DNA of 64,000 nt. Source: Candidatus Omnitrophota bacterium (lineage in GTDB: Bacteria > Omnitrophota > Omnitrophia > Omnitrophales > Aquincolibacteriaceae). This document shows, piece by piece, positions 1 to 28,579 of the stretch. The DNA lies in contig JAUYMS010000030.1 in NCBI GenBank assembly GCA_030698625.1, forward strand, positions 20,016 to 84,015, given 5' to 3'. Numbering within the stretch: the stretch's first letter is position 1; each line of letters starts with the position of its first letter. The position numbers were made by a program, and so were the translations under genes. Under the pieces are notes generated by a model that was not told the DNA's origin, did not search any database, and was given only the letters and a program-made list of their open reading frames with translations.

Positions 1-15
1 GCACGCGGCGGCATC

Positions 16-3000
16 ATGATGCGTCAGGGAAAACTCGTGCGCGTAAGTTTTACCGATCCTGTTGTTATTCACGAGTTTGTGGACTATACGGATTCCGCAA
101 TTCAAGTGAATCGCAATTTTCAAGAGCGTGTCCGCAAGCTGGGTATTTCGATGCCGTCACATCCGGAGACGGACGAATACATTTACCGCAAGGACGTCGC
201 AACCATGATCCTGAGCGGGCTCAAAGGTGTGAACATCCCCGAAACCACGCTTGTAATGGCCGATCCGGACGAGCGGCTCGCGGAGCGTATCCGGAAAACA
301 AGAGCAGCCGATCCGGCGAATCTTGAAATCATAGAAGTCAGTCCGCGCGACTGGAGCATTCACGAAAAGGTCCGCCGCATCCTCGATGATTTTCTGAAGC
401 CGCCGGGCAGGGAAGAGGCGGTGCTGAAGCCGCACCACGGCAGCGGCGGTGTCGACGTAATGATCTTTGGACGGGAGAACCTGGAACTGGCGATCAATCA
501 CGCGCTGCGTCTTCTGCGATCGGGGAAGAACCTCATCCTTCAGGAAAGGATCCGCTCACCTTTGATACGGCATGAGGGTGTGCTTAAAGACTGGACCCTG
601 CGTGATTTTATTGCGCTTACGCCGGAGGAGGGGCGGACCGTCGTCAGCGACGTCCTGATCCGTTACGACCGGGCCGGCCGGCCCGTCAATATTACGCAAT
701 TCGCCGATGTGATGACGCGCGAAGACCTTGTTCTAAGCGAGATGGACGGCGACTTTGAGTGGAACAGAGAGAGGCTTGAGACCCTCAACCATGACCTGCG
801 AGAGACCGGCGAGCACATTTATGCACCTATAGCCCGGTTGATGAGGGAAGACGGTGTCCTCGGAGAAGACGAATATCCGACAGAATTCATGAGTGCCGAC
901 CTGATGTATGACGGCGGCAAGCTCTATGTCATTGAACTGAATAATGACAAGACGGGCGGGATGGGCTGGTTGAACGATCACCTGCGGCGCCGCGCCGAAG
1001 CCGGCGACAAAGATGCGGAGGCCCGAATCGGGGCCTCGGTGCGGGACTGGACCAATTATATGGTGCATCGTGCCGGTGTTTATAAGAGCACGATCCTCGG
1101 CATGGAGGCACAAACGGTTTCCGCCGCCGAGATTTATGCCGCTCTGCCCCGCGAACACCGCGACTATCTCGATATTATCGAGTTACTCGCAGAGGTGTCC
1201 GATTTCTTATATTTGCCGGTGAAGCCTAAACTTTCAGCGGTGCGCGAATGGGACGAAAAACGATTGAATCAGATGAAGCAAGCGCTCAGCCGCCTGATCG
1301 ACGGTAATTTCCGCAAGGATAACTTGAGGGAAATGCCCGCGAAGAGTCAGGCAAGACTGCTGGATTTGACGGCAAGGCTCGGCATAAAACTTGATCCTGC
1401 GGCTGTTCGAAGCGCGCTTGCACCGTCTCATGAAAGCGCGGCTGGATGGAGAGACGACAATACCGTCGAACTGAAAAGGCGCCGGGAACTCTTCGAGGAA
1501 ATTGAAGGGGCATTGCTGCGCTCGCCCTATGCGGAAAAACTGGCCGAGACTCTTCCCGGACGCAATATCGAAAAGACGACCGAGCAGATATTGGACGCCT
1601 TCCTCCGCACGCCGCGGCATCTGTTCGTCCCCGATCGTTTGCGCGAGCGTGCCTACGAGGACAAGGCTTTTCACGTCGGACTAGGCCAATCGATCTCACA
1701 GCCCAGCCTGATGGCGTTCGTTCTGGCTGTTTTAGACATTGATGAAAACAAGAAGGTCCTTGAGGTCGGCGCGGGGACCGGATGGTTTGCAGCATGGATG
1801 GGACGTCTCGCCAAAGAAGTCTATGCCGTCGAAAGAATTGAAGCCCTTACCGAACTCGCGCGCCAAAATATTGGAAATCTCGGCATCGAAAATGTGAGCG
1901 TTATCACCGGCGATGGACACAAGGGTCTGCCGGAAGAGGCGCCCTTCGACGCGATCGTGGTTTCGGCAAGTACGCCGAAAGTGCCCGACAACCTGCTCCG
2001 TCAGCTTTCGGCCGCCGGCGGCCGTATTGTGATTCCCTTAGAGAAAGGCAATGGACAGCAGGAGCTGACCCTGATTACGCGCTATGCTGACGAATACACA
2101 TACACACCGCTCCGGGAAGTGCGCTACGTGCCGCTGCTTGACGGAAACCGTGACGATTCTACCCGGTCCGAGCTGAGGGTTACGGTCGATCACATGGCCG
2201 CCAAGCTGCAGCGCGAGATTAGCAGCCGGGGCGGCCGTAACATTCGCGTGGAAATCTCACCTTCCCTCGGGGAGTGGCTTCGCCGCGATGCCGTTTTTCC
2301 GGCCGGCCTCTTCAACGGCTATGCGAGTTTTATCGAGGCCCTGAATTTTTCTCCCGACAACAAGGTGCGTATTATTTTTGCCAGCTGGAGTGACGAGCAT
2401 TTCAATGTCAGGATCGACGGCACATGGCGTTCCATTGAAGAAATGCGGGCTTTTGTCACGGATAAAAATATTGTGGTCCTTAACCTGAGGGAGGCTATGG
2501 CCGACCCCGACGGACTGCGTGATGACGCCTATCACGAGCTGGCCCACGTCAAAACATTCGAGCGTATTTATGACGTAGTGCAAACTGACGCGACCTATTA
2601 CGTGCTTGAGACCCTGGCGGATGCACTGCCTTATGAGGCGCTGTTGTCGAAAAACAAAACGGCCGCAAGAAAACACTTTAACCGTGTGATCCTGCCGCAA
2701 ATGCGCGGCTACACAGCAAAAGAATTACGCGGCGAAATGGCGGATCTCGCTACGGGCCGCTACCGGCACGCCGAGAAGCTCATCAAATTTCTGTTCTTCA
2801 CGAAGCGCTACGGGAAGGAGAAGGACTATGAGGCCTTCTTCGAACGCCTGCGGCAGCACTACCCTAAACGGGGAGTCGTGACCCGCTTGAAGACCGGTGC
2901 CGGCAAGATGGTCGACGAAATGAATAAGGCCCTCGACGACCTTGCGCAATTTGAGAAGACTGAAAAGACGATGGTCTACGACGCAATCGGCGCTTCCCGA

Positions 3001-6000
3001 AAAACCGCCGAGGCATTTTTAAAAGCCGTCAGCGGCCGCGGGCGTTCGGAACTGCGGGAGTCAACGCACGAGGATGCGTGGTTGACGCATCCGGCGGAAA
3101 CGGACTGGACGAAGCGTACTCCTTCGCAGATCGGTCTGTTGGTGCGTCTCATGCTGCAACGCGCCGAGATTAGCATAGACCGGTTAATGCAATTGCCTGC
3201 GGAAGAAGCCGAAAGGGTTTTCAGGGCCACGCCAATTGAGCCGCTCAGTAACGGCGAACCTTATACACTGGAGCCGCTGTATCGGGCCTATGACAATCTC
3301 CGCGAAGCCGAAGGCTCAACCCTCAGCACCTTACAGTTCCTGTTTTATAGAAACAGGATTCCGTTTAAGGGGCAGGAAAGCGCGGCACGGCGTCATATCC
3401 TGGATGAACACATCAGCGGCAATGAGCGGCAGTGGTTTTCAACGATTGCGCAGGAACTCGATTTCGAAGCATGGATGCATCTCTTCGACACCGACCAGGG
3501 CCAGGCCGCGCTTTTCCTGCTCCTGGCAAAACGCTACCCCGATTTTCCGAAGACCGCCTTGCTCGCCTTGATTAGTGAAAAGTTCATGGACTACGAAGAG
3601 CGCAACGGCATCGAGCCCTTTACGCGCGAGGTCTTGATGGGCGAGAGGACGGAAAAGGCCTTGGCAGCGTACTGGTCGGGCAATATTACGACACGACTCG
3701 AACAACAGGAAATCGAAGATTTGCGTGACACGATTGCCCGGCAAATCATTATTCGCATTCACAACTCCATTTGGGACAAGGCGCATAAGGTGAAGCGCGC
3801 CAGAGGAAAATCCGCTGCGCACAAAGCTGTCGAGATAGGCCGTCAGTGGTTTTCCGCGCGGCTAAATGACAGGGAGCATCCGGTGCCGCGTGATGTGCGC
3901 ACGATCTTTACTCGAATCAGAAAACATTACGACAAGCTGAGTCAGGTCAACTATCAGCGGCATGTGAAATTCCAGAACGGTAACGGGATGTCGCAGTTGA
4001 TGCTTCACCAGGTGGAAGGCATTTACTTTGCGCGCCATCAAAATGACGGCCGTGTCATCCTCGGTGACGAAATGGGCGTCGGTAAAACGGTGCAGTCCCT
4101 CATTGCCGCTGAGGATGCGGGTGCTGAGAGTGTGCTCATCGTGGCGCCGACCCGGTTACTGGCGAACTGGGAAAAAGAGATCAGGGACTGGTTGGGCAAG
4201 GACCAGAAAATTGCGGTTATTCGCGGGAGCGGGAAGGCGAAACTGCGTCAGATCGAAGAGGCCAAAGAGGCAGGTGCGCGGTTTATTTTGATCAATTACG
4301 AGGCCATGGCCAATGTCAAAGAGAGTAGGAATGGTGACGCCGTCGTTGATGCGCTTAATGACTGGGACTTTGATTTTCTGATTGCCGACGAAGTTCATTG
4401 GGTCAAGAACCCGAGCGCGGAGCGCACCAAGGGTTTCCGCAAGCTCAACAAGAAAAAGGCGAAGGCCATGTACCTCTCGGGAACTTCGGTGGTTAACGGT
4501 GTCGGCGATCTTTTTACGGCACTTAATGCGGTAGACCCCGAGCGTTTCCCCACGTTTAAGAAGTTCGTCGGAGAATTCACCGAAGACGGAAGGCGGGCGC
4601 GCGGAACCGTCTCGGACCCGCTGAAGTTTGCGCAGCTGAACGTCGAGCTCAACCAGAAATACTTCCTGCGCCGGACGCTCGAGCAGGTCATGGGGCATTT
4701 GCCGAAAAAACATGACCTCGAAGAGATTCATATCGGGCTGGATCCCGAGCAGATCGAAGTCATGGAGGATGTGGAGGAGCATAATGATCTCCTGCGCAAA
4801 GGGGAGCTCGAAATTGATGACGACGAAGAGCTGCCCGAAAACGGTAAAAGGGGACCCAGCCGCGGTTTCGGGCCCTATGAGATTCAAAAGCAGGTCTTGA
4901 TCGACCTCGAGCTTCTGAACGGCATGGATTACAAACATTCGGATCCGCCAAAGTACCGGGCCGCGCTTCAGAAAGTGCGTGAGGTCATCGCGAAGGGTGA
5001 CAGGATTTACATCACGAGCCGGTACCGCAAAGTGATTTATCGCCTGCGTGAGTTTCTCGCCGATGCCATCGGTGCAGATGCGATCAGCTATATCGTCAGC
5101 AGCGAACACGACGGCGTGGAGCAGGACGCGATTGTCCGCGAGTTCAACGAGAACCAAAAGAAGAAGGTCTTTCTTTCCACCTATGGAATCGGCGGTGAGG
5201 GATTGACTCTCAAAGCAAACCATGTGCTCTTTGTCGATCTGCCTTATACGCCCGCAAAGATGAATCAGGTTATCGGCCGCGTTTATCGCTATGGACAGGA
5301 GAAGGAAGTTTATGTCTACGCCCTCGTGGTTCCCGATACCGTTGATGAAGATATTTTGGATATCTTGAGCCGGAAGGAATCCCTTTTCGATCAGATTATT
5401 CGCGGCAAGCTCAATGTCGAAGATACGCGGAAGATGCTCAAGCACCTGGAAGAGCAGGAAGACAGACGTTCGGGGCGGAAGTCTCAGGCCCAGAAGGCGC
5501 GGGCGCGCATTGCCGACATCTACAATCTTCTCAACGAGGGTGAAAACGAACTCGCCCAACGGGAATGGGACGACTTCATGGAACTTTACGAAGAAGCCAT
5601 TGAAGACGTCGCGGCCACGGCGGCCACCCAAGCCCTTTACTCCTACATGCTGCAGGAACATGACGGCAATCGAATCGATCTCGGTTACAAGTCAGACGAT
5701 TATGAAAACCCGCGCTGGGGCTTTCTTGCCTCGGGGCCGTCGGTCGATCTCCGTGTCCTCAGACAAATGCAGGAGCACTTTTCGGAGCGGGGGGTTGCAG
5801 TAGAAGGAATTGATTACTACGAACTCGACTCGTCCGCCAAAGCCCGTGCCCTCGGACATGCCTGGCAGGTCACGAAATCATTCCCGAATCGGCCGAGCAG
5901 TCAGCTGACTTACGACCTCTATAACGATAACCTGCCTCAAAATCAGTTCGATTTTGTGAGCTCCTCAGAAATCGCCAGGCCGCGCCCGCGAATCAAAAAC

Positions 6001-21000: not shown

Positions 21001-24000
21001 GGTGATGCGATTATGTTTCAATGGCCGGCCGAAGGCAGTGAAGACGACGCGCTTGTCCTGATGGGAGGGAAACATAGGGAGGATCAACTGATTTTGAACG
21101 GCGTGCTGATACGGCCCGGGACGAAGATCCAGGAAATGCAGGGGACTATGGCTCTTGAGCATGTCATGGGTGGTCTCGTGAAAGTAACCCGCGAGCACTA
21201 TGCGGCCAGCGAATACCCGCTCGAATTGCACAATGTTCAGAATCCTTATATTCTGGCAGTTGCCAACCAGCTGTTCGAACCAGGCACGCTCGAGATTGTA
21301 CCAGAGATGATGAGTGCCGAGGAAGTTCTTGAAAACGAAGGCCGCCCGGCGCGCTGGCGCCCGCTGGATGACATCGATTTTTACAGCGAGTTCGGACCGG
21401 TTACGGTTTATACTGACGATTTTTTGAATGCCAAAGAATTAGCGGAATTCCAGCTAACGAAAAAAGACGGCCGCTACGAAGTGACGGGGCCGGCGCCGGA
21501 GGGGATGCGCGTTCATGTCAGCGGGAACATCCTGCGCGTCACGGATCCGGCGACCAACCGCAAGATTCGCGTGCTTGCGCTTGAACGTCCGTTCAAGCTT
21601 CGTGGTAAATTGCGCGAAAGTTTCGGTCTCGCTCGCTCAGAATTAAGGGCGGATAACAACGGTCGAGTCGTTATGACAACTTCGCTTGAAGGCTTTGAGC
21701 CGGATGAAACAGCGCTCGGCGCCGAGGCAAGAGCTCACCTCAAGAGTTTTCGTAAGAGCGACGCCGTCGGCCGCGGCGATATGGCGCGGCTCTTTTTCGA
21801 CTTCCTGCTGCAGGATGAGATCGACGTTGAACTTCTCGACATCGGTTATGAAAGAGCACTAAAGCGCTATATGAAGGACAGGATTACTCCTCAGATTCGA
21901 AACGGACTCTTGATAAAAGTGCCTATCGCGGGTTTTATGGGAGATGAAGCCAGAAATCTACTGACGGCGTTGCTCATGGGCCGTGTGAGTGCGCGCGAAG
22001 TGCTCACGATCGCTATCCTTGAAGGTGTGCGTATCCCCGATGTCTTTCCCGACACCGAGGCGTTTACGGCTGAGCAGAAAGAGAAACAGCGGGACAGGGC
22101 ACAGAATTTCAGCGAGCGGTATTCGGCCCTGCTCAGCGGCAAAGAGGAGATTAGCATTTCAGTAAAGCTTCCGCCCGAAGATGAAGTGGACTCGCTTTTC
22201 GGGGAAATAAGCCGCCTCGGACGAGACCTATCTGAGATCCATATTTTTGCCGACCGTGACCTCGGAGACTTGAGGGAGTTCTGGCGGGCTTCCCGCAAAG
22301 GAACCCCGAAACCCCGTCCGTCTTATCTGACCCCGGTCGAGGCCGCCCTCATAGTTAGAATGCCGCAGCGGACTTTTGAGTCTTATCTTTATCACCTGGA
22401 ATCGCAGCAAATCGAATCGATGGACAGTTTTATTCAGAAGCACCTGGTTGCGACGGGTCATATTAAATTGTCCGATATCGAAGCGAAGCTTGATACCGCG
22501 CCGAAAGACTTGACCGAAATCATAGAGGATGCACGCAGAGGCGATGTGTTCGCTTTCTTTGACCTGATTCAGCGGCTTCACGTTCAGGTCATTGCTTTCA
22601 AGAAAATCAAGACAGGGGTGGATGTCGCGGAAAAGCAGAAGCGTGCGCTTCCGTCCCTCGCAAGGATTCTAGATAAACATATTACCGCCTTCGAGGGCTA
22701 TGATGAAAAATTCCGTGCCGGCTTCGGCCGGCTCGTCGGGTATCTCGACGAGTTGCTGGCCTTGCCGGCGCTCAAGCGGGCTGTCCTTGAGGATGCGTTT
22801 TATCGGGCGCGCATGATCGAGCTCATCGAGACATTGTTCCGCAATGATGATCTGGCCACGGCACAAGACCGTGCCCGGCTCCTGCAAGCCTTGGCGCATC
22901 TCACCACGGCCGAAGATAATACGCATATCTTCATTATGGAAGAGATGGAGCTTGAGATGCTGGGCGAAGGCCGCGAGATCGAAGGAGCGATAGACGCCTA
23001 TATCACTGCTCTTCGAGAACTCAGTGCCCGCGATCCAAAGATCTTGAGATTTCTGAAACTACGCATTCAATATCTTTCAATGAAGGAGCACAAACAGGAC
23101 GCCGGAAATGAGGATGCGGCGATTGCAGCACGGCGCCGTCGTGTTGCGAAGACGCAGCTGGATGCGTACCAAACCGTTCTCGGACGCATTGACGAGAGTT
23201 TGCTTCGCGCCGTGACACGTGACCCCGTCAAGGAGAACGCACTTGACGAGTTCCTTGCGCTGGGAGAAGGGTCCTGGAAAAAGAAAGCGACCCTTTTAGC
23301 GGAGATTCAAAAAGACCCTGAGCTGAAAAGGAGCTCAAGGGTGATTGATGAGGCGTTTGTGGGTAGGATACGCCAACAAATCGAAAAGCTCTATGCCGCC
23401 GAAGACATCAGCCAGGATCAGCGCGACGAAAAACTCCATGCCGCGGAGGCTTATCGCCGGGCATTAAAGCTCGCTGAGCCGCAGGGTGCATCTGCGGTTG
23501 CCTCAAGTGCGGTGTATTTTACGCAGGCTGAAGCAGCTGCTCACTTGGTTCTTGAGATTGAAAACGAAGTGAGGCACCTCTTTGATGAAGACCCCAACCG
23601 CAACCCGATAGAAATTTATCAGGCGGCCCGCGACGTCTATGCTGACTCAAAGGCGTTTCTCGGGAGTGAACAACGAATCTATTTCGAGACGGCCCTTGTC
23701 ATTCTGCTCAGAGAGCTCTATACGATTCAACGTCTGCGGTGGCGGACTTATGAACTTGGGCTCCTCAAGGATCTTAAAGACCTCGGTTTTTCTTCGACGT
23801 CCGGGGTCACCAATGAAGATCCCAAACAAGCCGAATTCATGCGAAATCTTCTCGGGTTCCTCCCGGGGCAGTATCAGGTCATGTTTTACCCGGGTTCGGT
23901 TGAAGTCACCATGGACGAAAGTTCCTTTAAACGCGCATGGAAACTGACGGGCAACGGTTTCGGGCGCGAAGTCGAGAACCTGAGCCAGGTTGAAATTGCT

Positions 24001-27000
24001 GTCTATAACGGAGAGGGGGCGGCCGGGTTCTATAGTGAGGGGTTTCCGCTTCGGCTCGGAGACGTGGCCTATCAGGGGATTACCAGTTTTGGGACCAACA
24101 GTTCGCTTGGAACCGGCGACTGGGTGGCGCGCCATGAACAGGGGCATTCGCTTTTCCGAAATTACCGTATCTATGATTCGTTCCTTGACCAAAGCGATTC
24201 GGGCGCAGCCTTGCTCGCTCCGTGGGTGGATAAGTGGGAGAAGGAATTTCTTGAGGGCGGCGTTCAAGACCCCGATCTTCGTGAGAAGTTAGTGCGCCTC
24301 TACGGGGACCATTTTCGCTGGTTCCAGGAGGAAATGATGATGAAGTACCTGCAGGCCGAAGACGGCCACATCATTAAACCGCAGGGGAATATCAAAAGTT
24401 GGTTCCTGAGCTATATTAATATGGAAGGATACGGAAGCGCGCGTGCCCGTTACCTCAACCGCGTGAGGGATCCGGATCTGGTGGAGAAATTTCACAATGA
24501 GATGCGGGAATTTACCAATGACAAAGAGCCGCGTATCGGCCGCATGCTGGAGCAAAGTGCGGCTGAGTATCTCGACATATACGAGGCATGGAAAGACGAA
24601 CTCCGGCCGGAAGGCTTTAGCGAACGGGATGTTATGCGCCTCGTCGGCTACTTCGGAGCGTTTCTCGGCCCGATCTTCAAGCTCCGGCGGCTCCGCAAGG
24701 CAACCGAGTGGGCCGTCGATCCGGCGCGTCGCGTTGAAGGTTCTCAGCGGTCGGAATTGCGGATGGACGGGGAAGAGGAACTGATTGAGGCGCGCGAAGC
24801 CTGGAAGAAAGCCCATGAGGCTTTAGAGGCGGCCGGTTCAACCGCCACGCTTGAACTTGGGAATTTTGCGCATATGGAAGGCTATGAGGGCTATCTGGGG
24901 GCGATGCCTAATGTGCCTGCGGAGCTTTTCGACGACATGTATCGCGGTGCTACGCTGGCCACCTTTGAGTTGAATCAGCACTCCTTTTTAAATTACCTCA
25001 CACATGTGCGCGAGGGGTATATGGGTCCGGCGCAGGGGGAGTCGACCTTCTACAAGAAGGCAATCGCATCCGTTATTCGCACCGGTGTGAAATACGGGGC
25101 AGGGGTCGATGCCGACGGGAAGCTGAATAACCCCATGTTGCGGATTATGGACGACAGCAGACCGAGCGATGTCATACAGGTCCCGTGGGGAGGACGAACG
25201 CTGCATGTGCGCGATATCGGCGGAGAACTTAAAGAGGCGGCTCCGATTACCGAACAGGAAATTCTTGCGGGCCTGGAACGCATGGACGGCATCTATCATT
25301 GGAATTTGCGCGTCAATCGACTCATCTCGTTTGACGCGCCGGGAAATACTTTCGGCCGCGCCCTTTCGGTTTACGAACCGCCCCACGAATCGATTCGCGC
25401 AGTGATTGCCGGCATTCAAAAGCAGTTTGGCGACCGGCTGCGTTCCCTGGGGCTCAGTGATGACGATATGCACTCCTTTATTGCCAACGACTACATCATT
25501 CCGTTGTTTGTAAGTATGCGTGATGTGCGTCAGCTAAAACACATTGCCGGAGAGATCCTCGAATTGATAGAGCATTCGCAGGACAAAGTGCCGGCCGAGA
25601 TGCGTATTGTCCATCTCGGCGGTATGGCGCATTATGCCTCGCTTAAGTCTCTGATCAAAGTTTTGGAGTTTGCCGGCCGAGGCACTCCGGTAACGGTGGG
25701 TAAAGCCTGGAATGATCCGCGTTATGAGGCGCATCGCCATGAAAAAGATGATACCTTGCGCGAGCGGCTCGTCACACGGCATATCAGGGAGATCTTTAAC
25801 CACGTGCACTTGGAAGACGGCGACGTGCGAATGGATGTGGACTTCTTTGTGGAGCGATTTGGGCGATTTCTGGACTCCGGCGGGTCTGCCTATGCTCAGC
25901 CATTTATGACGAGGCAGGCGCTTCTCCTTCGGCAAAAAGGTGAGCTTGAGGCCGCTGAGATGACGTTGATGCGGGCCCTTAAAATTGACCCGCGTGATCC
26001 CGGCGTGTTGATCAATCTTGGTATGGTCTATGCCGAGATGGGGCGGTCGGCAGAAGCCGCCGAAGCCTATGCAAAAGCTCTTTCGCTGGATCCGTATCTG
26101 GCTTCGGGGCATTTTAATCTTGGAAATCTCTATGCGCGGAGCGGAGACATGGCTGCCGCAATAAGCGCCTATCGCAAAGCGGTTCAGGTGCAGCCCTATT
26201 ATCTTCCGGCATGGCAGAATCTGGCTAATACCCTGGTTGCGGTCAACGACTATCCTGAAGCGATTAAGGCTTATGCTCAAGCCGTGCATCTGGCCCCGAA
26301 TGATCCGGAGTTGCTTTATAATCTGGGCATACTCAGCATCATGACAGGCCGAGTCAATGCCGCGCTGGAAATCAAAGACAGGCTCCAAACCTCTGAGCCG
26401 GAGCGCGCGGCCCAGCTTGAGCTCTATGCGCGGTCTGTCTTGCGAAGTACTGCACTCGCCGGAAAGCTCTTGGAGAAACGCGATGTTGTAAATCTGGAGC
26501 TCGGGAAATTGCGTTACGGTCAAGACGGTCGTCTGGCTGAGGGGCAAGAAGCGGACATAGGTAATTTGATCCGCGAAGGTAAGTATCTCCTCGTGCAATT
26601 TGGCGGGTATGGCAGCGATGCGCAGGCTTGGGCACGCGCAAAGCACGACCTGAAGAGTTTTGCCTATGCGCTGACCCTGGCCTTGAAAGATGAAGGAGAT
26701 CAGGCTGCCGCCGATGTGATCCGCGAAATCCTCTATAACGGTTTTGTTCACGGCAATAAACTTGCCGAGCGGCTGCCGATGTTCTTGCATCTCGAGTTGG
26801 ACGCTGAGCGCCATGATACCGTTCAAAAGATTGAAGTTGTCGATGCGGCTTCCCTCAAGCCGTTAACGACCGAGCAGATCAAGACCGGTAAAGACGAGGC
26901 CAAACTCTGGGGGGCCGAAGACGGTATCCCGGGGATCACGGCCCGGGGCTGGTCTTACGAGCGCGAGGCGATTCGCCACGAGAGTTTGGATGATGCGATC

Positions 27001-27627
27001 GGCACTCGCGTCGTCTCAGAGCGCGGCTCACCGGAACGGTCCGAACTGCGGACGGCACCGGGCCTTCATGCCGGTGAAGCGCTTTCTGCGGTTTCGCACA
27101 AGAGAATCTTTGTTGATTTCGCGGACCTTGCGGCAAATTTTTCGGATGAGCAGATCAAAGAAATCATCTATGTGGCCGAGAGAACCGGTGAGGATGTCGG
27201 CGTCGTTGTCTACAACCTTGATCCTCTGGAGGCGAACGGCCTCGGCAAGTTTTTCGAGAGCGTGAACCTGAAGAACCTCGTGATTGAATCGGCGGGGCTG
27301 GAAGAGGCCTACCGGAACAATACCCGCGAATTCCAGGGAGAGATCATTCACCTCTCAAGCCAGGCCTCTGAGATCAAAGCTGAGACGGTCCGGCAAATAG
27401 TGCAGGGTCAATACGAGGTGTTTGCCATGGCGCATACCGGCAACGCAAGCGGGGCCCTCGGGCTGGGGCTTATCGAATTGCGGGACGGCGATCTGAGCCA
27501 TACGCTTCCCGATTATCTCGACTACGACCCTCGCGGCCGCATCTTCGTTTCCGACCCCGAATATTCCGCCTATACCGATCTCCAGGAACTCTACGACACC
27601 ACCGTCGCCTTCGCCCGCGCCGCGTAA
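16..27627 (+). CDS. Giant multidomain protein (9,203 aa) with ATP-grasp, PIMT-like methyltransferase, SNF2 helicase, internal repeat modules, an HExxH motif region and TPR repeats. Possibly 5'-partial, because the frame is open from nt 1.
   Basis: Single uninterrupted 27.6 kb ORF in the provided track. Enzyme motifs recognised by eye are listed in the sub-features below. The five codons upstream of the first ATG contain no stop, so the true start may lie outside the window. Confidence 0.85.
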   Translation: MMRQGKLVRVSFTDPVVIHEFVDYTDSAIQVNRNFQERVRKLGISMPSHPETDEYIYRKDVATMILSGLKGVNIPETTLVMADPDERLAERIRKTRAADPANLEIIEVSPRDWSIHEKVRRILDDFLKPPGREEAVLKPHHGSGGVDVMIFGRENLELAINHALRLLRSGKNLILQERIRSPLIRHEGVLKDWTLRDFIALTPEEGRTVVSDVLIRYDRAGRPVNITQFADVMTREDLVLSEMDGDFEWNRERLETLNHDLRETGEHIYAPIARLMREDGVLGEDEYPTEFMSADLMYDGGKLYVIELNNDKTGGMGWLNDHLRRRAEAGDKDAEARIGASVRDWTNYMVHRAGVYKSTILGMEAQTVSAAEIYAALPREHRDYLDIIELLAEVSDFLYLPVKPKLSAVREWDEKRLNQMKQALSRLIDGNFRKDNLREMPAKSQARLLDLTARLGIKLDPAAVRSALAPSHESAAGWRDDNTVELKRRRELFEEIEGALLRSPYAEKLAETLPGRNIEKTTEQILDAFLRTPRHLFVPDRLRERAYEDKAFHVGLGQSISQPSLMAFVLAVLDIDENKKVLEVGAGTGWFAAWMGRLAKEVYAVERIEALTELARQNIGNLGIENVSVITGDGHKGLPEEAPFDAIVVSASTPKVPDNLLRQLSAAGGRIVIPLEKGNGQQELTLITRYADEYTYTPLREVRYVPLLDGNRDDSTRSELRVTVDHMAAKLQREISSRGGRNIRVEISPSLGEWLRRDAVFPAGLFNGYASFIEALNFSPDNKVRIIFASWSDEHFNVRIDGTWRSIEEMRAFVTDKNIVVLNLREAMADPDGLRDDAYHELAHVKTFERIYDVVQTDATYYVLETLADALPYEALLSKNKTAARKHFNRVILPQMRGYTAKELRGEMADLATGRYRHAEKLIKFLFFTKRYGKEKDYEAFFERLRQHYPKRGVVTRLKTGAGKMVDEMNKALDDLAQFEKTEKTMVYDAIGASRKTAEAFLKAVSGRGRSELRESTHEDAWLTHPAETDWTKRTPSQIGLLVRLMLQRAEISIDRLMQLPAEEAERVFRATPIEPLSNGEPYTLEPLYRAYDNLREAEGSTLSTLQFLFYRNRIPFKGQESAARRHILDEHISGNERQWFSTIAQELDFEAWMHLFDTDQGQAALFLLLAKRYPDFPKTALLALISEKFMDYEERNGIEPFTREVLMGERTEKALAAYWSGNITTRLEQQEIEDLRDTIARQIIIRIHNSIWDKAHKVKRARGKSAAHKAVEIGRQWFSARLNDREHPVPRDVRTIFTRIRKHYDKLSQVNYQRHVKFQNGNGMSQLMLHQVEGIYFARHQNDGRVILGDEMGVGKTVQSLIAAEDAGAESVLIVAPTRLLANWEKEIRDWLGKDQKIAVIRGSGKAKLRQIEEAKEAGARFILINYEAMANVKESRNGDAVVDALNDWDFDFLIADEVHWVKNPSAERTKGFRKLNKKKAKAMYLSGTSVVNGVGDLFTALNAVDPERFPTFKKFVGEFTEDGRRARGTVSDPLKFAQLNVELNQKYFLRRTLEQVMGHLPKKHDLEEIHIGLDPEQIEVMEDVEEHNDLLRKGELEIDDDEELPENGKRGPSRGFGPYEIQKQVLIDLELLNGMDYKHSDPPKYRAALQKVREVIAKGDRIYITSRYRKVIYRLREFLADAIGADAISYIVSSEHDGVEQDAIVREFNENQKKKVFLSTYGIGGEGLTLKANHVLFVDLPYTPAKMNQVIGRVYRYGQEKEVYVYALVVPDTVDEDILDILSRKESLFDQIIRGKLNVEDTRKMLKHLEEQEDRRSGRKSQAQKARARIADIYNLLNEGENELAQREWDDFMELYEEAIEDVAATAATQALYSYMLQEHDGNRIDLGYKSDDYENPRWGFLASGPSVDLRVLRQMQEHFSERGVAVEGIDYYELDSSAKARALGHAWQVTKSFPNRPSSQLTYDLYNDNLPQNQFDFVSSSEIARPRPRIKNKKGISMKLWALSQMVQSATAGGLVLIWDHHGAFSKKAMDFLSNEETFDLEIINTEGSAIKIPGLDEATRNMVDGVTFILARKRSHKTFSVEDLKRIQKKWPDGLHIDRDQQLGSRIAKRRPLKMTDEAPDDKPRRGVLDVITPGAPAGLISLVQRVIKNKKRTGADQNMEERLIEVFEILRSGSRKPEDVRKLHEHLRKILERGLEPDGIRILLSRVKRYKRYQNRKDLNAVIAMLEGTLAKADDETEPREKGEKETGGKGAGASKRGRRPGNELPKIIINDGDVLQALSLQGIIFRKSSKSIRTGVHVEGATVWVDPYLIASRVLSPEERQYILQLLVYMHLELVHPDNPAAALLVGLRHFRELLDKDEVHAALQKMEPDKTNIFYFFFDSHDLPTWQEVEQIIAVDPSSVPPYRVQDILGRFTQFLLKHRSSEHLPPELPDEGAIPALLVKAGEIDGKHGKKIAAARKTQPKKMRSKHRQEESLRIVERVLAAHQITITDWNDDAAADVIRERMLTGPVNHDSLWRYFHEPLLRVNQDWRASEEAKERVQTVYRALLPMQFRAVLKAGSYRWDESREKLNEAWMNERDYLTLGEEMKQQNGDYVEDAFWKRREQDLGIKNGMNERRWAMSARAGIRKGFSEETNTEIIRGFRAYLTNPLSLFEENEVIAPYAEISVKVADIPGAKGSRVSIAFEDREVAYLGTGYSEDNLIGRWYVVQKFPSSEVEYQDKDLRAIDDILLELKYHFEKIDTLTRSQHREFVPHYSSPFFADSARLMSQLDSNELGLNRDRFGGDAMKIVNILIPILKGTGTSDEAKTAARRFLTAVAPSMADEIAEGSIDKTLLSRAILTERKIQVDYEDKYREGGFSDEEQQLETDKVRHASIMARHVAKLALTEQSQQALIADFVEKHAGDFPEGLKAEDLRIDIVWNQTLRDEGIQERAAVFASHSNVRIIRDDEVLAVLGLNFMPGDMQGRWHLSQKLYKNGKFEFPRGKFIRTGQMDAAEREAGIDLGLLRHQGVVIGRPNYKSLVLVENPAKEGQVFVLRMTTPGSLFGTAADREPVTKIDIAQDAVYRMPDSGVVLHVKDGLITVKAEVKPGAWESYHWIYHAVFDADEWPQMDFPEFSGGDFIVDDEVRDVALQKVERWSQDTTYAAITAADVADGPLFFRPSAEAAYGLAAVRNPWLDDSILIFQTDIDGRMIAPSPKPILGVDLDANETWRSPIRGVGRDGKTLYFWLHPQTGSIYWAHFEINNGASSAEPPSDGDEIVHPAYPFKEGHLEQAANARAGIIQIQDKGGRSGVRDVYEISRDVLAHDGVIVTYYSTMNRYAGVSHLHVIQSRENPNLVYIYGLDENFRYVPRDERDHLHVLDLRNPDSRTTDADRRGNITFKVINAGNALKIIRSHSDMEGQRARGEEVYAAKFVPDDEGDDDWKTIQSILNAAAVINGNAQFPHYDSPVFGEFVRKILHELSPEELGSRDGSTHRRFHERGKNLIEPLLVMAESTTAPARVRDTAKKMLIAFAPEMRRQILAGNIDRQQLMRELIGEKTEYVGLERNLQAEGSTREKQALENMRLPNARFASILARYNSALKLDAKARDLLLDDFMEKHGQGLDRETLRVEVAQEQEIEDYTSGGGFLDHVSDLVSRIRIIDGEEPLAELGVMYSEDDMQGEWRLLKDAGRESVPTGSYLFPEGEFKKNKLMPKNATEINPEDWNDGAIVFQQLGSAYAPSPIALVPSFVDPNKILVLPVTSHFRTFKETALREPLGVLDLSNPSEDYLKVSFWPDRQDLQGRETLLRVIDGGKVEVVQLNGEAVPTMSRAAFGADDWTQVPMAEVVGGTFKRGPKLQSKDPRKFAYLARKKFENGRSLMIREPEDTYLVAGQNPWDAKSVIVFRTDAEGHMLDEMDGRPILAFSTIKAGVHQVGDIHFQFDDFVVDGLMAMRKGEGEDEETAAYEATFVPGPEPYPFLGGNFAPKAGQELEGIEITGGGITEEYEISGEVLGGDGAVVTYYSSHSSYRGVSHLHFIRSRKNPDWVYAYGLDGNFRYSQWRNTPLIAINLNKRISSYARGEHMGNIEVKPNSSADGIVVHRRNQMNVETAKDENGEVQILDVSFDRRRAEVVFAAEFHPDGAESEGRLNTFKARFMADEGWFAYPYVHGRLKKTSVDAQDGIQFSRRNGSSTSKISREALAGKGVLIAQYKYTKAESEELVYYHLMLDPENSKRLYIYELDGDGRAVPADPEPLAILNLSDSQFEWSNKHSNLSVGANYGEPGFLLSVNHNKGPFGEVYRAEFIADPPAERSVSETYPAYPFAEGAFRTLATGEGMTRGHSDVFQTAEIDRSVLAAEGVVATHYVPYGPHRGVSHLHIFQDRSNPDLIYVYGLDEKFHYGQWRSGPLAVLNLADPALNVGEGVRRGNVWVQKSADKNKVLITHKNPRYPRRPDRDEGIYRVQYVSREQAKYPYAGGRLVRPAGNEATAGITFGLKAAKGSAAYELSPESLSGTGVLVAEYVRSPSWSQEIFHHHLFLDPLDPRKLLLYRLDEEGRATGEHQTPVTVLDLDEEFRWSTGTFILMNDKNGKGLSLTRRKGPFDKVHRARFVPDGGEAVPDKALERSNLVRNGVFKRLTQLRRFKFGEFTDHAASSKFRWTASVGRPQLDAGQALLVLESKLGSERTSLVAVRHSSRVGVVQIYRLGNDDRIVDARAQLVTELNAEESESLGLFTFTVKSNGAVEVSKADGRVVAYSAEFIPGESAASGDDRLLEEALTYVGGHYPDYDYLFGVFSYDDLEWPSAFKPFFEILKNPDASAQAKEFVRRIFLARAPSLYEAIVSGEILGMDEDELLKIFKQEEALWDFQQKFDGKGGEIHTAYYAIEEAQKEKGLEGVEISAVRMAGLLADSEPLVPRGPSAGFSTATQAALKNDFFDRYGALFDGLERKDLYIDYEFDVPAYENLKIARIIMRRGIDGPELAHLGTGRTFDNVQGVWHLNHELVKASVPGEYIFFRSEEPLEGERAPDGRDLILPLAAFRQTVGEEEKITGGVFIIGDRFGSIPHGDAIAVQHPDHPHLIFIFNNLGREGNIIDESYRQPQPAAILDLLDPQPVEVEGTRYSVTPDGRIRIGNANLDKRGSASVFGLVGGSLVWSSKPGQNEATGASDDIEVPLDPQTTALRELLGGDLLHKILRPDYKGADIRQAVRKLKKDKFWWPFDQNASPYARLVTERIYAATVPALADRVLSGDLDKETYNAELDRDLGGKDFSRLRRMSMRDNDGKARELSRPDKEWLIADFFSRHADALDEDLGPEALDLRIKETDSETDFLIVRRYKVQGETEALARLGTGFEFGNLQGRWYIEGGALRGAFKTGKHFGSIGDGATTVTLEPSVLDTGGVYLDSAHHDVSRGFVLPVVLRRDINRPTLVHAYMLSPQGSYGGIKSGWEYSLADIDLTKTGSEYRVEETRITVLAGGRLQISLTEKSNLSHGVYAAEFSPVRRESNAPDLAVVHDIIAAYGLHRYLGSDQFGSWARPHILHGGLDAKRWHDSFKPLLGIVNNAEADPEARRLAQRVLVALTPRLRDRIYPDGAAEQAALNVPAATELTKDDIFNWAQGKADPAVGATLVMPVTYYDEKKGGADVIPRARVEVKSAGTGKSFAVPIDDLRLKRKELKNATLAVIEDANLGKVLAIFAPDDYESWRFGNYTVTPLAVFPVTAKHNGFRQLAVPFLVDIDKLSRGELEEVRVPGHPWSYIKTAARVEPPSGKMESTTARIILKSTAFGVLVQMGFTPTAADLEKIDLESGERNMDVYVVIRQHPNRGPMVQVFRLKDYDPAKPAEYGEPIVTYAYVDEKWTQIIPAVNDIIDAAYGRKDLVETADAFEQKVAINQDGRRASITITTGTHGKNKKAFSFTFSKEEIDEFKLAENPAIVRLKVDRDYGPYIAVSARVNGEERLIGNSVEVKNEAQKTRRVDFDKEAFADFLNSANNIHGEPIAPRIYTHAHELTEQNRYMVDVLNRAQVRSLDEHGIKRPVFIPRPDAKYGWVFETHDVDTYNKDPGKKPEVVLARRPGHTTLMKVNRVSAPAEPEAKRDTEGSILDEATLLSELMSESHLQMFHEQDAMYWNRNYGEAEDIARWAERAGEWKDRWIHSDPVREASLQASIYGKLKLSSDSQKLLIRDFLDKHGDQFAIPLGAQDLWIRIFAFDKHYPDGEVRQASRIAVAHKDTGRILATLGNFHEPGDLQGYWRLEPWSNPPVPAERFKQHGFKERDYVRDADGTVRMPHINVPALLATRVANEQPGVTSGWMLTRRQRDSKHVLIAKGRSHEPGEILGVLDLTRPGSSVTLDHATFTVESNEKVAVVQAPDPALAAIATVLGSVKVKGSSTLSEGSATVRYVTDEYGARRFRHAFYDQRGSATDQSDWDRIHEPLVRVLEDPAASETAKRVVLRIYLALVPDLREMMESGTIDRARLREELRNEHKIWEHIEAKIERGHAKARGEHNYPKDFGPGFKAKRIPAGVSIRRLTPVKWAAMLANEYKIEELETGDEELLKKDFLTRHGTDFGDVLDSGDTKIRMRFSGVEVVLAEAEETVIATLGDGYHPKELRGTWSIDNEFKFDASLHQLKKILYKGAMVRMEDEIWNREIFGEIVRGDLYVLAGKAKWETVHEPMLEILRDEKASAETRRVIKLIYLAITPSLHAEILGGELWNHKAAIQNELEKEVERAGQEYRAAKAEQEFPDMTLTRQASAYARVGQNRIFVGADEEALIDDFWQQHSSDLPPWFERERLKLIATQIHIDKIHELMPHGERLYVTIAHTADDGKQTTLARLGTSFAPNNLVGQWSILWENIVMPALSREALNFEDYKQLGMGSDRAEIIVDAQTLLQSGGLFIDRSSQSERYRNLALMPGPSSKNVLLVIAVDDKAPDGDQLPLGTLRLDQPGFSRVERNETQFEVLENGQVVVRPGVFDGSIPEGYIRHNPVYQLASKKRSELRSSIQVGNPLYPGKLEMFGDAIMFQWPAEGSEDDALVLMGGKHREDQLILNGVLIRPGTKIQEMQGTMALEHVMGGLVKVTREHYAASEYPLELHNVQNPYILAVANQLFEPGTLEIVPEMMSAEEVLENEGRPARWRPLDDIDFYSEFGPVTVYTDDFLNAKELAEFQLTKKDGRYEVTGPAPEGMRVHVSGNILRVTDPATNRKIRVLALERPFKLRGKLRESFGLARSELRADNNGRVVMTTSLEGFEPDETALGAEARAHLKSFRKSDAVGRGDMARLFFDFLLQDEIDVELLDIGYERALKRYMKDRITPQIRNGLLIKVPIAGFMGDEARNLLTALLMGRVSAREVLTIAILEGVRIPDVFPDTEAFTAEQKEKQRDRAQNFSERYSALLSGKEEISISVKLPPEDEVDSLFGEISRLGRDLSEIHIFADRDLGDLREFWRASRKGTPKPRPSYLTPVEAALIVRMPQRTFESYLYHLESQQIESMDSFIQKHLVATGHIKLSDIEAKLDTAPKDLTEIIEDARRGDVFAFFDLIQRLHVQVIAFKKIKTGVDVAEKQKRALPSLARILDKHITAFEGYDEKFRAGFGRLVGYLDELLALPALKRAVLEDAFYRARMIELIETLFRNDDLATAQDRARLLQALAHLTTAEDNTHIFIMEEMELEMLGEGREIEGAIDAYITALRELSARDPKILRFLKLRIQYLSMKEHKQDAGNEDAAIAARRRRVAKTQLDAYQTVLGRIDESLLRAVTRDPVKENALDEFLALGEGSWKKKATLLAEIQKDPELKRSSRVIDEAFVGRIRQQIEKLYAAEDISQDQRDEKLHAAEAYRRALKLAEPQGASAVASSAVYFTQAEAAAHLVLEIENEVRHLFDEDPNRNPIEIYQAARDVYADSKAFLGSEQRIYFETALVILLRELYTIQRLRWRTYELGLLKDLKDLGFSSTSGVTNEDPKQAEFMRNLLGFLPGQYQVMFYPGSVEVTMDESSFKRAWKLTGNGFGREVENLSQVEIAVYNGEGAAGFYSEGFPLRLGDVAYQGITSFGTNSSLGTGDWVARHEQGHSLFRNYRIYDSFLDQSDSGAALLAPWVDKWEKEFLEGGVQDPDLREKLVRLYGDHFRWFQEEMMMKYLQAEDGHIIKPQGNIKSWFLSYINMEGYGSARARYLNRVRDPDLVEKFHNEMREFTNDKEPRIGRMLEQSAAEYLDIYEAWKDELRPEGFSERDVMRLVGYFGAFLGPIFKLRRLRKATEWAVDPARRVEGSQRSELRMDGEEELIEAREAWKKAHEALEAAGSTATLELGNFAHMEGYEGYLGAMPNVPAELFDDMYRGATLATFELNQHSFLNYLTHVREGYMGPAQGESTFYKKAIASVIRTGVKYGAGVDADGKLNNPMLRIMDDSRPSDVIQVPWGGRTLHVRDIGGELKEAAPITEQEILAGLERMDGIYHWNLRVNRLISFDAPGNTFGRALSVYEPPHESIRAVIAGIQKQFGDRLRSLGLSDDDMHSFIANDYIIPLFVSMRDVRQLKHIAGEILELIEHSQDKVPAEMRIVHLGGMAHYASLKSLIKVLEFAGRGTPVTVGKAWNDPRYEAHRHEKDDTLRERLVTRHIREIFNHVHLEDGDVRMDVDFFVERFGRFLDSGGSAYAQPFMTRQALLLRQKGELEAAEMTLMRALKIDPRDPGVLINLGMVYAEMGRSAEAAEAYAKALSLDPYLASGHFNLGNLYARSGDMAAAISAYRKAVQVQPYYLPAWQNLANTLVAVNDYPEAIKAYAQAVHLAPNDPELLYNLGILSIMTGRVNAALEIKDRLQTSEPERAAQLELYARSVLRSTALAGKLLEKRDVVNLELGKLRYGQDGRLAEGQEADIGNLIREGKYLLVQFGGYGSDAQAWARAKHDLKSFAYALTLALKDEGDQAAADVIREILYNGFVHGNKLAERLPMFLHLELDAERHDTVQKIEVVDAASLKPLTTEQIKTGKDEAKLWGAEDGIPGITARGWSYEREAIRHESLDDAIGTRVVSERGSPERSELRTAPGLHAGEALSAVSHKRIFVDFADLAANFSDEQIKEIIYVAERTGEDVGVVVYNLDPLEANGLGKFFESVNLKNLVIESAGLEEAYRNNTREFQGEIIHLSSQASEIKAETVRQIVQGQYEVFAMAHTGNASGALGLGLIELRDGDLSHTLPDYLDYDPRGRIFVSDPEYSAYTDLQELYDTTVAFARAA
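170..990 (+). other. Domain of giant protein: ATP-grasp-like ligase fold
   Basis: The motif VLKPHHGSGGVDV resembles the ATP-grasp phosphate-binding loop seen in RimK and glutathione synthetase type enzymes (VLKPxxGxxGxGV). A downstream LYVIELNNDKTGGMGW segment resembles the C-terminal ATP-grasp metal-binding region. Confidence 0.55.
1560..2150 (+). other. Domain of giant protein: protein-L-isoaspartate(D-aspartate) O-methyltransferase (PIMT/Pcm)-like SAM-dependent methyltransferase
   Basis: PRHLFVP...AYEDKAFHVGLGQSISQPSLMA matches the PIMT signature (RxxFVP...AYxDxxLPIGxGQTISQPxxVA). The SAM motif I is VLEVGAGTGW, and post-I acidic motif VYAVERIE follows; post-II motif FDAIVVSAS follows. Confidence 0.75.
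3990..5400 (+). other. Domain of giant protein: SNF2/SWI2-family helicase ATPase (N-terminal DEXH lobe plus helicase C lobe)
   Basis: Motif I is GDEMGVGKTVQSL. Motif II is DEVHWVKN (the SNF2-type DExH followed by KN). Motif III is LSGTSVVNGVGDLFTALNAV. The helicase-C motif VI is QVIGRVYRYGQEKEVYVYALV. Order and spacing are typical of SNF2. Confidence 0.85.
7500..21000 (+). other. Internal repeat region of giant protein with at least three diverged repeated module types
   Basis: Eight copies of ...L(A/I)xLGxGxxxxxNLQGxWxL... occur near nt 8101, 8881, 10981, 14910, 16000, 18661, 19741 and 20440. Each is preceded by an (L)IxDFxxKHGxxF...DLRI segment and by an HEPL..DxxAxAxxxRVxxxIYLAxxPxL helix-like segment. 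Three copies of VVTYYSxxxxYxGVSHLHxIxSRxNPxxVYxYGLDxxFRY occur near nt 9961, 12030 and 13045. There are recurrent (V)YxAEFxPD motifs and GxNPWxxxSxIxFxTD motifs. Confidence 0.7.
23800..24500 (+). other. Region of giant protein with an HExxH motif (possible zincin-like metallopeptidase)
   Basis: WVARHEQGHSLF is encoded at nt 24124..24153. Acidic residues occur downstream (WEKEFLEGG). Only the short motif is visible, so catalytic status is uncertain. Confidence 0.3.
25890..26390 (+). other. TPR repeat block of giant protein
   Basis: Consecutive 34-residue repeats carry the W-LG-Y-A-F-A-P pattern: ...ALKIDPRDPGVLINLGMVYAEMGRSAEAAEAYAKALSLDPYLASGHFNLGNLYARSGDMAAAISAYRKAVQVQPYYLPAWQNLANTLVAVNDYPEAIKAYAQAVHLAPNDPELLYNLGIL. 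Confidence 0.8.
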
Positions 27628-27642: not shown

Positions 27643-27788
27643 GAGGTGAAAACGAGTCTGCCCGAAACGCTCCGGATTTCTTGGCCTATCCTGCCCATCA
27701 AAGTCTTGTCGAAAACCGGCGACTTTGATACTCGCTGATACGGCCCAAGAAATCCTCCGCATGTTTCTGGCAGCCTCTTTCTCACCTC
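27643..27788 (+). repeat. MITE-like palindromic repeat element, copy A (~146 bp), with 14 bp terminal inverted repeats gaggtgaaaacgag / ctctttctcacctc
   Basis: It lies in the intergenic gap just 3' of the giant gene. It is about 90% identical to the reverse complement of 61993..62138. It has extensive internal complementarity (ggatttcttggcc / ggcccaagaaatcc and atcaaagtc / gactttgat), which predicts a long hairpin. Confidence 0.75.
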
Positions 27789-28552: not shown

Positions 28553-28579
28553 TACTCCCCGATTTTTTGGCGAAAATCT

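Follow-up and report, generated by a model that had tools for sequence, protein, structure and literature searches.

A cysteine-free giant protein of a Candidatus Omnitrophota bacterium with a recurrent RSELR motif at its module borders

The 64,000-nucleotide stretch of contig JAUYMS010000030.1 analyzed here (the window), from the Candidatus Omnitrophota assembly GCA_030698625.1, begins with a gene for a soluble, acidic, cysteine-free modular protein of approximately 1 MDa, referred to below as the giant. The pentapeptide RSELR marks six borders between its modules, and in its relaxed form, RSE[LV]R, the motif shows conservation of the peptide at the module borders of two homologous proteins, the giant and the 3,751-residue P0001. 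Together with a few fragments, these proteins form a very small, undescribed family, the features of which are an SNF2 core flanked by conserved orphan domains, arrays of two repeat modules termed A and B, near-total avoidance of cysteine, and RSE[LV]R. The reading that is tentatively preferred here, with reservations set out below, is that the RSELR motifs are processing sites and that the giant is a multi-module protein exported out of the cytoplasm. An earlier note on this DNA, made from the sequence alone, described a mosaic of enzymes and repeats and overlooked the two most unusual features of the protein, the absence of cysteine and the RSELR punctuation.

The open reading frame (ORF) of the giant occupies nucleotides 16–27627 of the forward strand and encodes 9,203 residues from the ATG at position 16. 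Read from nucleotide 1, the frame comprises 9,208 sense codons and meets its first stop at 27625–27627, such that it is open at the window edge, as the earlier note had observed. Amino acid coordinates are counted here from the translation of nucleotide 1, and all features of the gene are on the forward strand. The single, uninterrupted ORF described in that note was also borne out: the same DNA carries 302 and 493 stops in the other two frames, which makes a chance ORF unlikely, and the giant ORF is a genuine single gene of the Candidatus Omnitrophota bacterium. The proteins of the neighboring genes are identical to NCBI entries MDP3920237–MDP3920265, which belong to a Candidatus Omnitrophota metagenome-assembled genome (MAG) and lie on a 217-kb contig. 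The earlier note had proposed GC consistency as a check, and the GC content at third codon positions (GC3) is 0.59–0.66 across the gene and 0.58–0.63 in neighboring genes, arguing that the gene was not recently imported.

Given these properties, an artifact, whether from chimeric assembly, from the collapse of repeats, or from chance read-through of a decayed pseudogene, is scarcely credible. The source is a MAG, and an independent Logan assembly of run SRR13727534, which is 100% identical to window positions 43,839–61,830, breaks 52 nucleotides after the stop codon; its contigs cover positions 27,679–39,500 and 43,839 onward, and the giant gene is not on one independent contig, although the organism has thus been sequenced twice. 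Against an artifact stand the 9,208 sense codons with neither a stop nor a cysteine codon, compared with approximately 300–490 of each in the other frames, the uniformity of GC3 along the gene, and the intact catalytic motifs. The gene has no direct DNA repeat of at least 30 nucleotides, which argues against assembly collapse of the repeats. Moreover, the A modules extend over 13 kb, and P0001 has the same order of core, A/B units, and C-terminal domain. Logan contig L002 begins at window position 27679, and the break 3′ of the giant may reflect an assembly difficulty at or in the gene. An exact look-up in the protein collection did not return the giant with either an M6 or an M7 start.

RSELR is present in six copies in the giant, where 0.025 would be expected (P~3e-13), an enrichment of approximately 240-fold. 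Every SELR in the protein is an RSELR, with no degenerate variants, and the motif is found in no real neighboring ORF of the window. The first site, at aa 722–726 (nucleotides 2164–2178), lies six residues past the end of a protein isoaspartate methyltransferase (PIMT) domain, and the second, at aa 1015–1019 (3043–3057), is positionally equivalent to the RSELR at aa 704 of P0001. The remaining sites are at aa 6979–6983 (20935–20949), aa 7212–7216 (21634–21648), aa 8250–8254 (24748–24762), and aa 9013–9017 (27037–27051), and the six sites together delimit seven segments of 721, 293, 5,964, 233, 1,038, 763, and 196 residues. The sites differ from one another in synonymous codons, such that the constraint acts on the peptide; an explanation at the level of the DNA was rejected for the same reason. 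P0001 contains five RSE[LV]R sites compared with 0.026 expected (P~9e-11), three of which sit before A/B units. In P0001, the motif separates individual A/B units, whereas the giant holds nine units in one segment of approximately 6,000 residues. A search of the literature for RSELR yielded nothing but unrelated names of software.

The second signature is compositional. The giant has no cysteine in 9,208 residues, compared with approximately 91 expected (P~3e-40) from 30 neighboring ORFs, in which cysteine accounts for 100 of 10,076 residues (0.99%). TGY codons number zero in the frame of the giant and 302 and 364 in the other two frames. P0001 contains two cysteines in 3,751 residues (P=5e-14), and a third family member, P0002, contains none in 1,297 (P=3e-6); cysteine avoidance is thus family-wide, extending over approximately 14,000 residues in three members. 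RTX and autotransporter proteins also avoid cysteine. The same avoidance has been reported for many S-layer proteins. Window positions 43621–46357 on the forward strand encode DsbD and, next to it, a thioredoxin/AhpC-TSA family protein, and because these two proteins imply periplasmic thiol-disulfide chemistry, an exported protein would have reason to avoid cysteine.

A profile of the A module, searched against 1.84 billion representative proteins, returned five matches, four of which are credible; the fifth is likely a spurious HEAT/NACHT protein. The best relative is P0001 (MBI2167792.1), from a Candidatus Omnitrophica MAG, which aligns with aa 998–2405 of the giant at 32% identity over 1,484 columns (E 5e-174), spanning the orphan regions on both sides of the SNF2 domain, and which, in addition, contains A/B units and ends in a C-terminal domain of weak similarity. 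P0001 is 2.5 times shorter than the giant, lacks the ATP-grasp-like, PIMT, HExxH, and TPR regions, and carries other N-terminal cargo. This homologue was already in NCBI as a ‘DEAD/DEAH box helicase’, which tempers the novelty that the earlier note had attached to the protein, and the domain combination that was not known to that note was not found elsewhere in its exact architecture. P0002 (MBP9866096.1) is a 1,297-residue fragment from Omnitrophota, the A modules of which contain inserted RNA-polymerase alpha C-terminal domain (alpha-CTD)/helix-hairpin-helix (HhH) domains at the point where the helical half meets the terminal ‘LGNGFxPxNLEGxW’ strand, suggesting that DNA-binding inserts can be accommodated in the scaffold of the family. 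P0003 and P0004, short fragments that come from other samples, are 30–44% identical to the A modules of the giant. Protein searches with the repeat unit, the A-module alignment, and an alignment of the core shared by the giant and P0001 returned nothing among the 8,000 candidates covered and did not recover P0001 itself, and no related loci were found in genome, metagenome, or viral contig collections.

P0006, a longer gene call from Logan for the P0001 protein, opens with MKPDSKKLCRRGTAFFVSLCFILLETVGNFSPLFA, a sequence of signal-peptide-like character (KD15 = 2.1). Residues 1–38 of P0006 constitute an N-terminal extension, MKPDSKKLCRRGTAFFVSLCFILLETVGNFSPLFASEG, that resembles a Sec signal peptide. 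This extension holds two of the four cysteines of that gene call.

Approximately 85% of the giant has no match in Pfam, NCBIfam, or the PDB. Of the mosaic described in the earlier note, the PIMT-like methyltransferase, the complete SNF2 helicase, the TPR block, the diverged repeats, and the C-terminus of unknown kind all stand; the ATP-grasp-like domain is less firmly placed, and the HExxH motif region has neither statistical nor profile support. The largest of these parts is the repeat scaffold, aa 2512–6854 (nucleotides 7534–20562), which was resolved by chunked self-BLAST and iterated hidden Markov models into nine A and six B modules with 23–41% identity between copies and comprises approximately 4,300 residues rather than the approximately 4,500 first estimated. 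The A module, of approximately 225 residues, consists of a helical bundle plus a β-sheet and ends in LAxLGxGxxPxNLxGxW. A modules 1–5 span aa 2512–2732, 2775–2996, 3466–3697, 4775–5007, and 5192–5368, and A modules 6–9 span aa 5522–5625 (partial), 6030–6258, 6393–6616, and 6640–6854. The B module is β-rich, follows the pattern YPFxxG...GVSHLH...YGLD, and is found at aa 3032–3150 (partial), 3180–3430, and 3881–4134 (B modules 1–3) and at aa 4133–4241 (partial), 4233–4460, and 4457–4605 (B modules 4–6). A B-like domain comes after most A modules. An AlphaFold2 (AF2) model of repeat unit 1, made with an internal alignment, has a pLDDT of 65 and shows A as a helical bundle plus sheet, followed by β-rich domains; a Foldseek comparison of this model with the PDB gave TM-scores of at most 0.1.

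The core that precedes this scaffold is an SNF2-family ATPase, aa 1336–1807 (nucleotides 4006–5421; Pfam PF00176 E 8e-28 and PF00271 E 9e-13). Both lobes are present, SNF2-rel_dom at aa 1336–1597 (97.8 bits) and Helicase_C at aa 1657–1765 (48.9 bits), and the motifs GVGKT, DEVH, LSGTS, GGEGLTL, and QVIGRVYRYGQ are intact. The core is preceded by a conserved orphan domain at aa 1015–1335 (3043–4005), common to P0001 and containing the conserved sequences WLT[HN]P[AD]ETDW and LLALISE, and is followed by a conserved orphan region at aa 1860–2405 (5578–7215), also common to P0001 and including a basic low-complexity linker and a ‘WVDPYL’ domain. An impression, gained by eye, of a Rossmann methyltransferase after the SNF2 domain was unsupported; the sole PDB profile match in that region was a doubtful PARP zinc finger, which is implausible because the giant is cysteine-free. 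Among known structures, the SNF2 domain is related to PDB 1z63 (E 5e-26), and its best PADLOC match is of the ZorD type (E 1e-45).

These relationships bear on an alternative in which the giant is an uncleaved, cytoplasmic, DNA-associated megaprotein, which we consider possible but rather doubtful. The SNF2 translocase, mounted on the A/B scaffold, would organize, remodel, or defend the DNA of the producer; RSELR would be a docking or modification motif read, for example, by the TPR block or a kinase, and the PIMT domain would repair a very long-lived protein in cis. The closeness of the SNF2 domain to the defense helicases ZorD, DpdE, and DrmD is in keeping with such a role, as are the ATP- and S-adenosylmethionine (SAM)-dependent enzymes with intact motifs, the alpha-CTD/HhH DNA-binding inserts in the A modules of P0002, and the fact that neither a transmembrane (TM) segment nor a signal peptide is seen in the window. 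Short peptides are, in addition, common ligands of TPR domains. However, the NCBIfam scores for the Zorya, DISARM, and Dpd proteins are far under their cutoffs, at 74.8 bits for ZorD (cutoff 1500), 72.6 for DrmD (610), and 64 for DpdE (500), and no partner genes of these systems are present. P0001 has RSE[LV]R sites without the TPR, PIMT, or ATP-grasp domains, such that none of those domains reads the motif. Full avoidance of cysteine in three members, next to neighbors with approximately 1% cysteine, would go unexplained, and the signal-peptide-like start of the homologue also speaks against a cytoplasmic protein.

The first RSELR-delimited segment contains the PIMT domain and a possible second enzyme. 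The PIMT domain, aa 513–716 (nucleotides 1537–2148), is of the canonical repair type (Pfam PF01135 E 9e-52) and scores above the NCBIfam equivalog cutoffs, with 203.2 bits for NF001453 (cutoff 188) and 172.2 bits for TIGR00080 (cutoff 159), in addition to 176 bits for PF01135 (cutoff 20.3). Its best PDB relative is 1jg1 (E 2e-36), and the motifs GQSISQP, VLEVGAGTG, and GDG...FDAIVV are present. The N-terminal domain, aa ~6–380 (16–1140), is possibly ATP-grasp-like, with the motifs KPHHGSGG, QERI, and YVIELNN recognized by eye. Three sub-threshold ATP-grasp matches, to DcsG in the PDB (6jil, E 0.021) and to DcsG (0.0018) and glutathione synthetase (0.011) in NCBIfam, converge on the same approximately 60 residues within aa ~120–190. 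The domain has no Pfam match, even at E<=1, and a single-sequence AF2 prediction of the N-terminus gave an unusable model (pLDDT 35); the ATP-grasp identity is plausible but unproven.

An ATP-grasp ligase and a PIMT homologue form a functional pair in the gene clusters of the ribosomally made, post-translationally modified peptides (RiPPs) fuscimiditide and graspimiditide, and thus the pairing itself, as part of a combination that the earlier note did not recall having seen, is known. Similar to the arrangement in those clusters, in which the ATP-grasp enzyme and a PIMT-family O-methyltransferase are associated, a possible ATP-grasp domain and a PIMT domain occur together in the giant; here, they are fused in one protein, and no precursor peptide is evident. 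It is conceivable, although unlikely, that the giant is a self-modifying scaffold, in which the ATP-grasp and PIMT domains would install ester or amide cross-links and aspartimides in its own Asp/Glu-rich repeats, which would take the place of disulfides as stabilizers. The documented pair, the location of both domains in one RSELR-delimited segment, the cysteine-free and Asp- and Glu-rich composition of the giant, and a slight over-representation of DG dipeptides (62 compared with 47 expected) fit such a scheme. The methyltransferase, however, is of the repair type and reaches 90.3 bits against the ATP-grasp-maturase-system model TIGR04188, for which the cutoff is 380; the ATP-grasp assignment is sub-threshold; P0001 has the same repeats without these enzymes; and a graspetide-like core motif was not identified.

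The remaining segments are largely orphan. Segment 2, aa 722–1014 (nucleotides 2164–3042), contains HELAH at aa 845 and has no family or PDB match, and segment 4, aa 6979–7211 (20935–21633), has no family match. Segment 5, aa 7212–8249 (21634–24747), is mostly helical, contains HEQGH at aa 8045, and likewise lacks family and PDB matches. These two HExxH motifs compare with 0.5 expected by chance, and neither region has a match in Pfam, NCBIfam, or the PDB. Within segment 6, aa 8250–9012, a TPR block at aa ~8644–8811 (25930–26433) is identified by Pfam TPR_1 (E 1.5e-22) and related models and by PDB matches to consensus TPR and OGT TPR structures. The last approximately 390 residues are orphan. 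They include segment 7, a C-terminal domain at aa 9013–9208 (27037–27624) that has neither a PDB nor a family match and is weakly similar to, and co-terminal with, the C-terminus of P0001 (pairwise BLASTP E 0.003). No credible match came from searching the orphan segments and the two module profiles (A and B) against Pfam and NCBIfam (E<=1) and the PDB (E<=10), and SecA_DEAD, dockerin, TSP3, C39, and S8 domains are absent (Pfam at E<=0.01, and at E<=1 on the orphan segments).

In the preferred reading, the giant would be synthesized as a precursor resembling a polyprotein and would leave the cytoplasm, and a protease would cut at the six RSELR junctions to yield seven products. Product 1 would contain the ATP-grasp-like and PIMT domains (aa 1–721), product 2 the HELAH domain (aa 722–1014), and product 3 the SNF2 domain plus scaffold, approximately 6,000 residues in length (aa 1015–6978). 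Products 4 and 5 would be orphan segments (aa 6979–7211 and 7212–8249), product 6 would contain the TPR block (aa 8250–9012), and product 7 would be the C-terminal domain (aa 9013–9208). Export is proposed because of the cysteine avoidance, the signal-peptide-like N-terminus of the homologue, and the type II secretion system (T2SS)/Tad context, and the hints in the window comprise T2SS-E, prepilin, TadE/TadG, two nucleases with signal peptides, and DsbD. Since SNF2, PIMT, and the putative ATP-grasp domain need ATP or SAM, export would imply action in the cytoplasm of another cell, and the exported version would involve delivery into a host or prey cell, as with multi-effector toxins such as MARTX. 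If the giant is not exported, the same RSELR junctions could serve intracellular processing.

Several observations weigh against processing and export. The 9,208 residues contain neither a signal peptide nor a hydrophobic segment, although the true N-terminus may be upstream of the window; the maximum Kyte-Doolittle hydropathy over 19 residues is 1.49, and with no such span above 1.6 there is no TM-like segment. P0006 has its signal peptide only if an alternative start is used, and NCBI annotated the shorter one. No protease was pinpointed: both HExxH motifs are at chance level and without profile support, and P0001 has no HExxH, such that a shared protease would have to be either a trans-acting one or, in cis, part of the conserved orphan regions. 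The requirement of the SNF2, PIMT, and ATP-grasp domains for ATP or SAM argues for a cytoplasmic location in the producer, and the PIMT domain belongs to the housekeeping type. No type I (T1SS), type III, or type VI secretion system genes, RTX repeats, or known translocation module were found. Finally, the sequence around the RSELR sites shows only a mild excess of polar or flexible residues (P=0.08 in the giant and P=0.012 in P0001), and the conservation of RSE[LV]R involves two independent proteins, with no copy in the 1,297-residue P0002 fragment.

In MARTX toxins, which are secreted and very large, repeats flank a string of unrelated effector enzymes. Cleavage at short sites between the domains frees these effectors, which act in the cytoplasm of the target. 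The likeness to the giant is one of working principle, with no sequence homology. The RTX/glycine- or GD-rich repeats and the cysteine protease domain of MARTX are not in the giant, which with zero cysteines cannot hold such a protease, and whereas MARTX genes have an adjacent T1SS, no ABC, membrane fusion protein, or TolC genes are present in the window. A bolder extension of the preferred reading holds that RSE[LV]R is the first recognizable processing signal of Omnitrophota giants and that the family is an exported, cysteine-free, multi-effector polyprotein acting in a host or prey cell; this is speculative, and we regard it as improbable. The released modules would then include an SNF2 motor mounted on a DNA-binding scaffold and a PIMT/ATP-grasp module that modifies proteins, and the producer would be an episymbiotic or predatory nanobacterium.

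The genes downstream of the giant bear on its possible export and origin. A terminator-like hairpin with a T-run, which is a consensus match only, lies 200 nucleotides past the stop at 27825–27856 on the forward strand. The stretch at 28001–30000, immediately downstream of the giant, has a GC content of 0.47 compared with approximately 0.54 around it, and Logan gene calls with weak Pfam marks place a BrnT-toxin/CopG(BrnA)-antitoxin-like pair at 29367–29919 on the reverse strand; this low-GC patch may be a small mobile insertion. Two staphylococcal-nuclease homologues, 2.5–5 kb downstream of the giant gene, are encoded on the forward strand at 30077–30538, with a clear signal peptide, MRIYSLLLLLFGYIVCATPAAYA, and at 32434–33120, with a lipoprotein-like N-terminus. 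An ORF at 31610–32437 has a weak T2SSF_N match, and ExbB/ExbD are encoded at ~35244–36430, where the MotA/ExbB protein, of 256 residues and followed by ExbD, is not ZorA-like. A T2SS-E/PilT-like ATPase, an N_methyl prepilin, and a TadE/TadE/TadG-like cluster occupy 50900–57368, such that T2SS-E, TadE/TadG, the N_methyl prepilin, and the weak T2SSF_N match are all within 30 kb of the giant.

An exported transglutaminase-like/bacterial transglutaminase-like cysteine protease (BTLCP) is encoded at 42122–42985 on the reverse strand, with a GDCEDFA motif and a signal peptide (DUF553, 34 bits; Peptidase_C93/BTLCP, 26.8 bits, just below the cutoff). BTLCPs such as LapG trim giant secreted adhesins, and this protein is a candidate trans-protease, located 15 kb from the giant and on the opposite strand. 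ROK, TPR, VWA, and Lgt genes are also found downstream in the window. Two Trp-rich ORFs (18 and 29 Trp) occupy 57548–61143 on the forward strand; the first has a PMT_2 glycosyltransferase-like membrane domain and a PA14 domain and is named a TIGR03663 family protein in NCBI, and the second has no family match. Apart from TPR to TPR, no ORF of the window resembles any part of the giant, and there are no tRNA or Rfam matches in the window.

The comparison with phage and conjugative-element polyvalent proteins and with DarB of P1, made in the earlier note, does not fit the giant. Polyvalent proteins were reportedly described by Iyer et al. in 2017. Similar to the giant, polyvalent proteins and DarB carry an SNF2 helicase, a methyltransferase, and additional enzyme modules on a single polypeptide, and the SNF2-plus-methyltransferase mosaic and possible peptidase motifs of the giant resemble those of polyvalent proteins; the BrnT/BrnA-like pair in the low-GC patch just downstream would also suit a mobile element. 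A protein of a phage, plasmid, or integrative element, injected with DNA to counter host defenses, is nevertheless very unlikely. The neighbors of the giant are chromosomal housekeeping and envelope genes, its composition is native, with GC3 equal to that of the neighbors, and the 64-kb window contains no phage, plasmid, conjugation, integrase, or virion genes. A tblastn search with aa 1860–3000 found no match among 50,697 records of phages and 72,556 of plasmids, IMG/VR scans likewise gave none, and the methyltransferase is a protein-repair PIMT instead of a DNA methylase, with protein rather than DNA as its substrate.

The closest known company of the giant is within its own phylum. West-Roberts et al. 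2023 (bioRxiv 10.1101/2023.11.21.568195) described Omnitrophota proteins of >30 kAA (thousand amino acids) with many TM regions, SecA-DEAD, dockerin, and C39/S8 domains; cleavage was suspected, and the missing cleavage points blocked even computational dissection. Nielsen & Lui 2026 (10.64898/2026.06.07.730766) catalogued 916 proteins of >=10 kAA in multi-enzyme, tandem-repeat, and dockerin classes, found a TM helix or signal peptide in 94% of the catalogued giants, and reported that 13 of 14 Omnitrophota giants are flanked by T2SS, type IV pilus, or Tad genes. Neither report mentions SNF2, isoaspartate, ATP-grasp, cysteine, or RSELR junctions. Giant multi-enzyme and repeat proteins are thus documented as common in Omnitrophota, which narrows the earlier claim that proteins of this size are very rare in prokaryotes.

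Similar to these giants, of the Archaeovorin/Dockerin types and the Nielsen & Lui classes, the protein described here is from Omnitrophota, is encoded by a very long ORF that joins unrelated enzyme domains with diverged, Pfam-dark repeats, shows a dissolved tandem signal at the DNA level, and is flanked by T2SS, Tad-pilus, and prepilin genes; proteolytic processing is suspected for those proteins. The main differences concern size, membrane association, and domain content. At 9,203 residues, the giant falls under the 10 kAA and 30 kAA thresholds of the two catalogues and would reach the 10,000-residue class of Nielsen & Lui only with an upstream extension of the ORF by at least 800 codons. The Archaeovorin/Dockerin type has numerous TM regions and SecA DEAD, dockerin, or C39/S8 domains, whereas the giant has none of these domains, no visible TM region, and no signal peptide seen. 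The set of PIMT, SNF2, and possible ATP-grasp domains, the cysteine-free composition, and RSELR are its own. What is known, therefore, is the phylum, the mosaic-plus-dissolved-repeat logic, and the secretion-gene flank, and what is new is the domain set and the two undescribed sequence signatures.

A central question for Omnitrophota giants is whether they act as one working chain or as cut products. If cleavage and export fail, the protein described here is one more orphan-rich Omnitrophota giant. The A/B modules are new structural material, with no fold match and four credible relatives in 1.84 billion proteins. RSELR at the module borders offers concrete candidate cleavage sites and a rule by which such proteins could be divided before structure prediction, and total avoidance of cysteine is a strong marker that is cheap to screen for and may separate exported from cytoplasmic giants. 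The multi-effector reading, if true, would make this family a bacterial counterpart of viral polyproteins and of MARTX that is assembled from wholly new parts.

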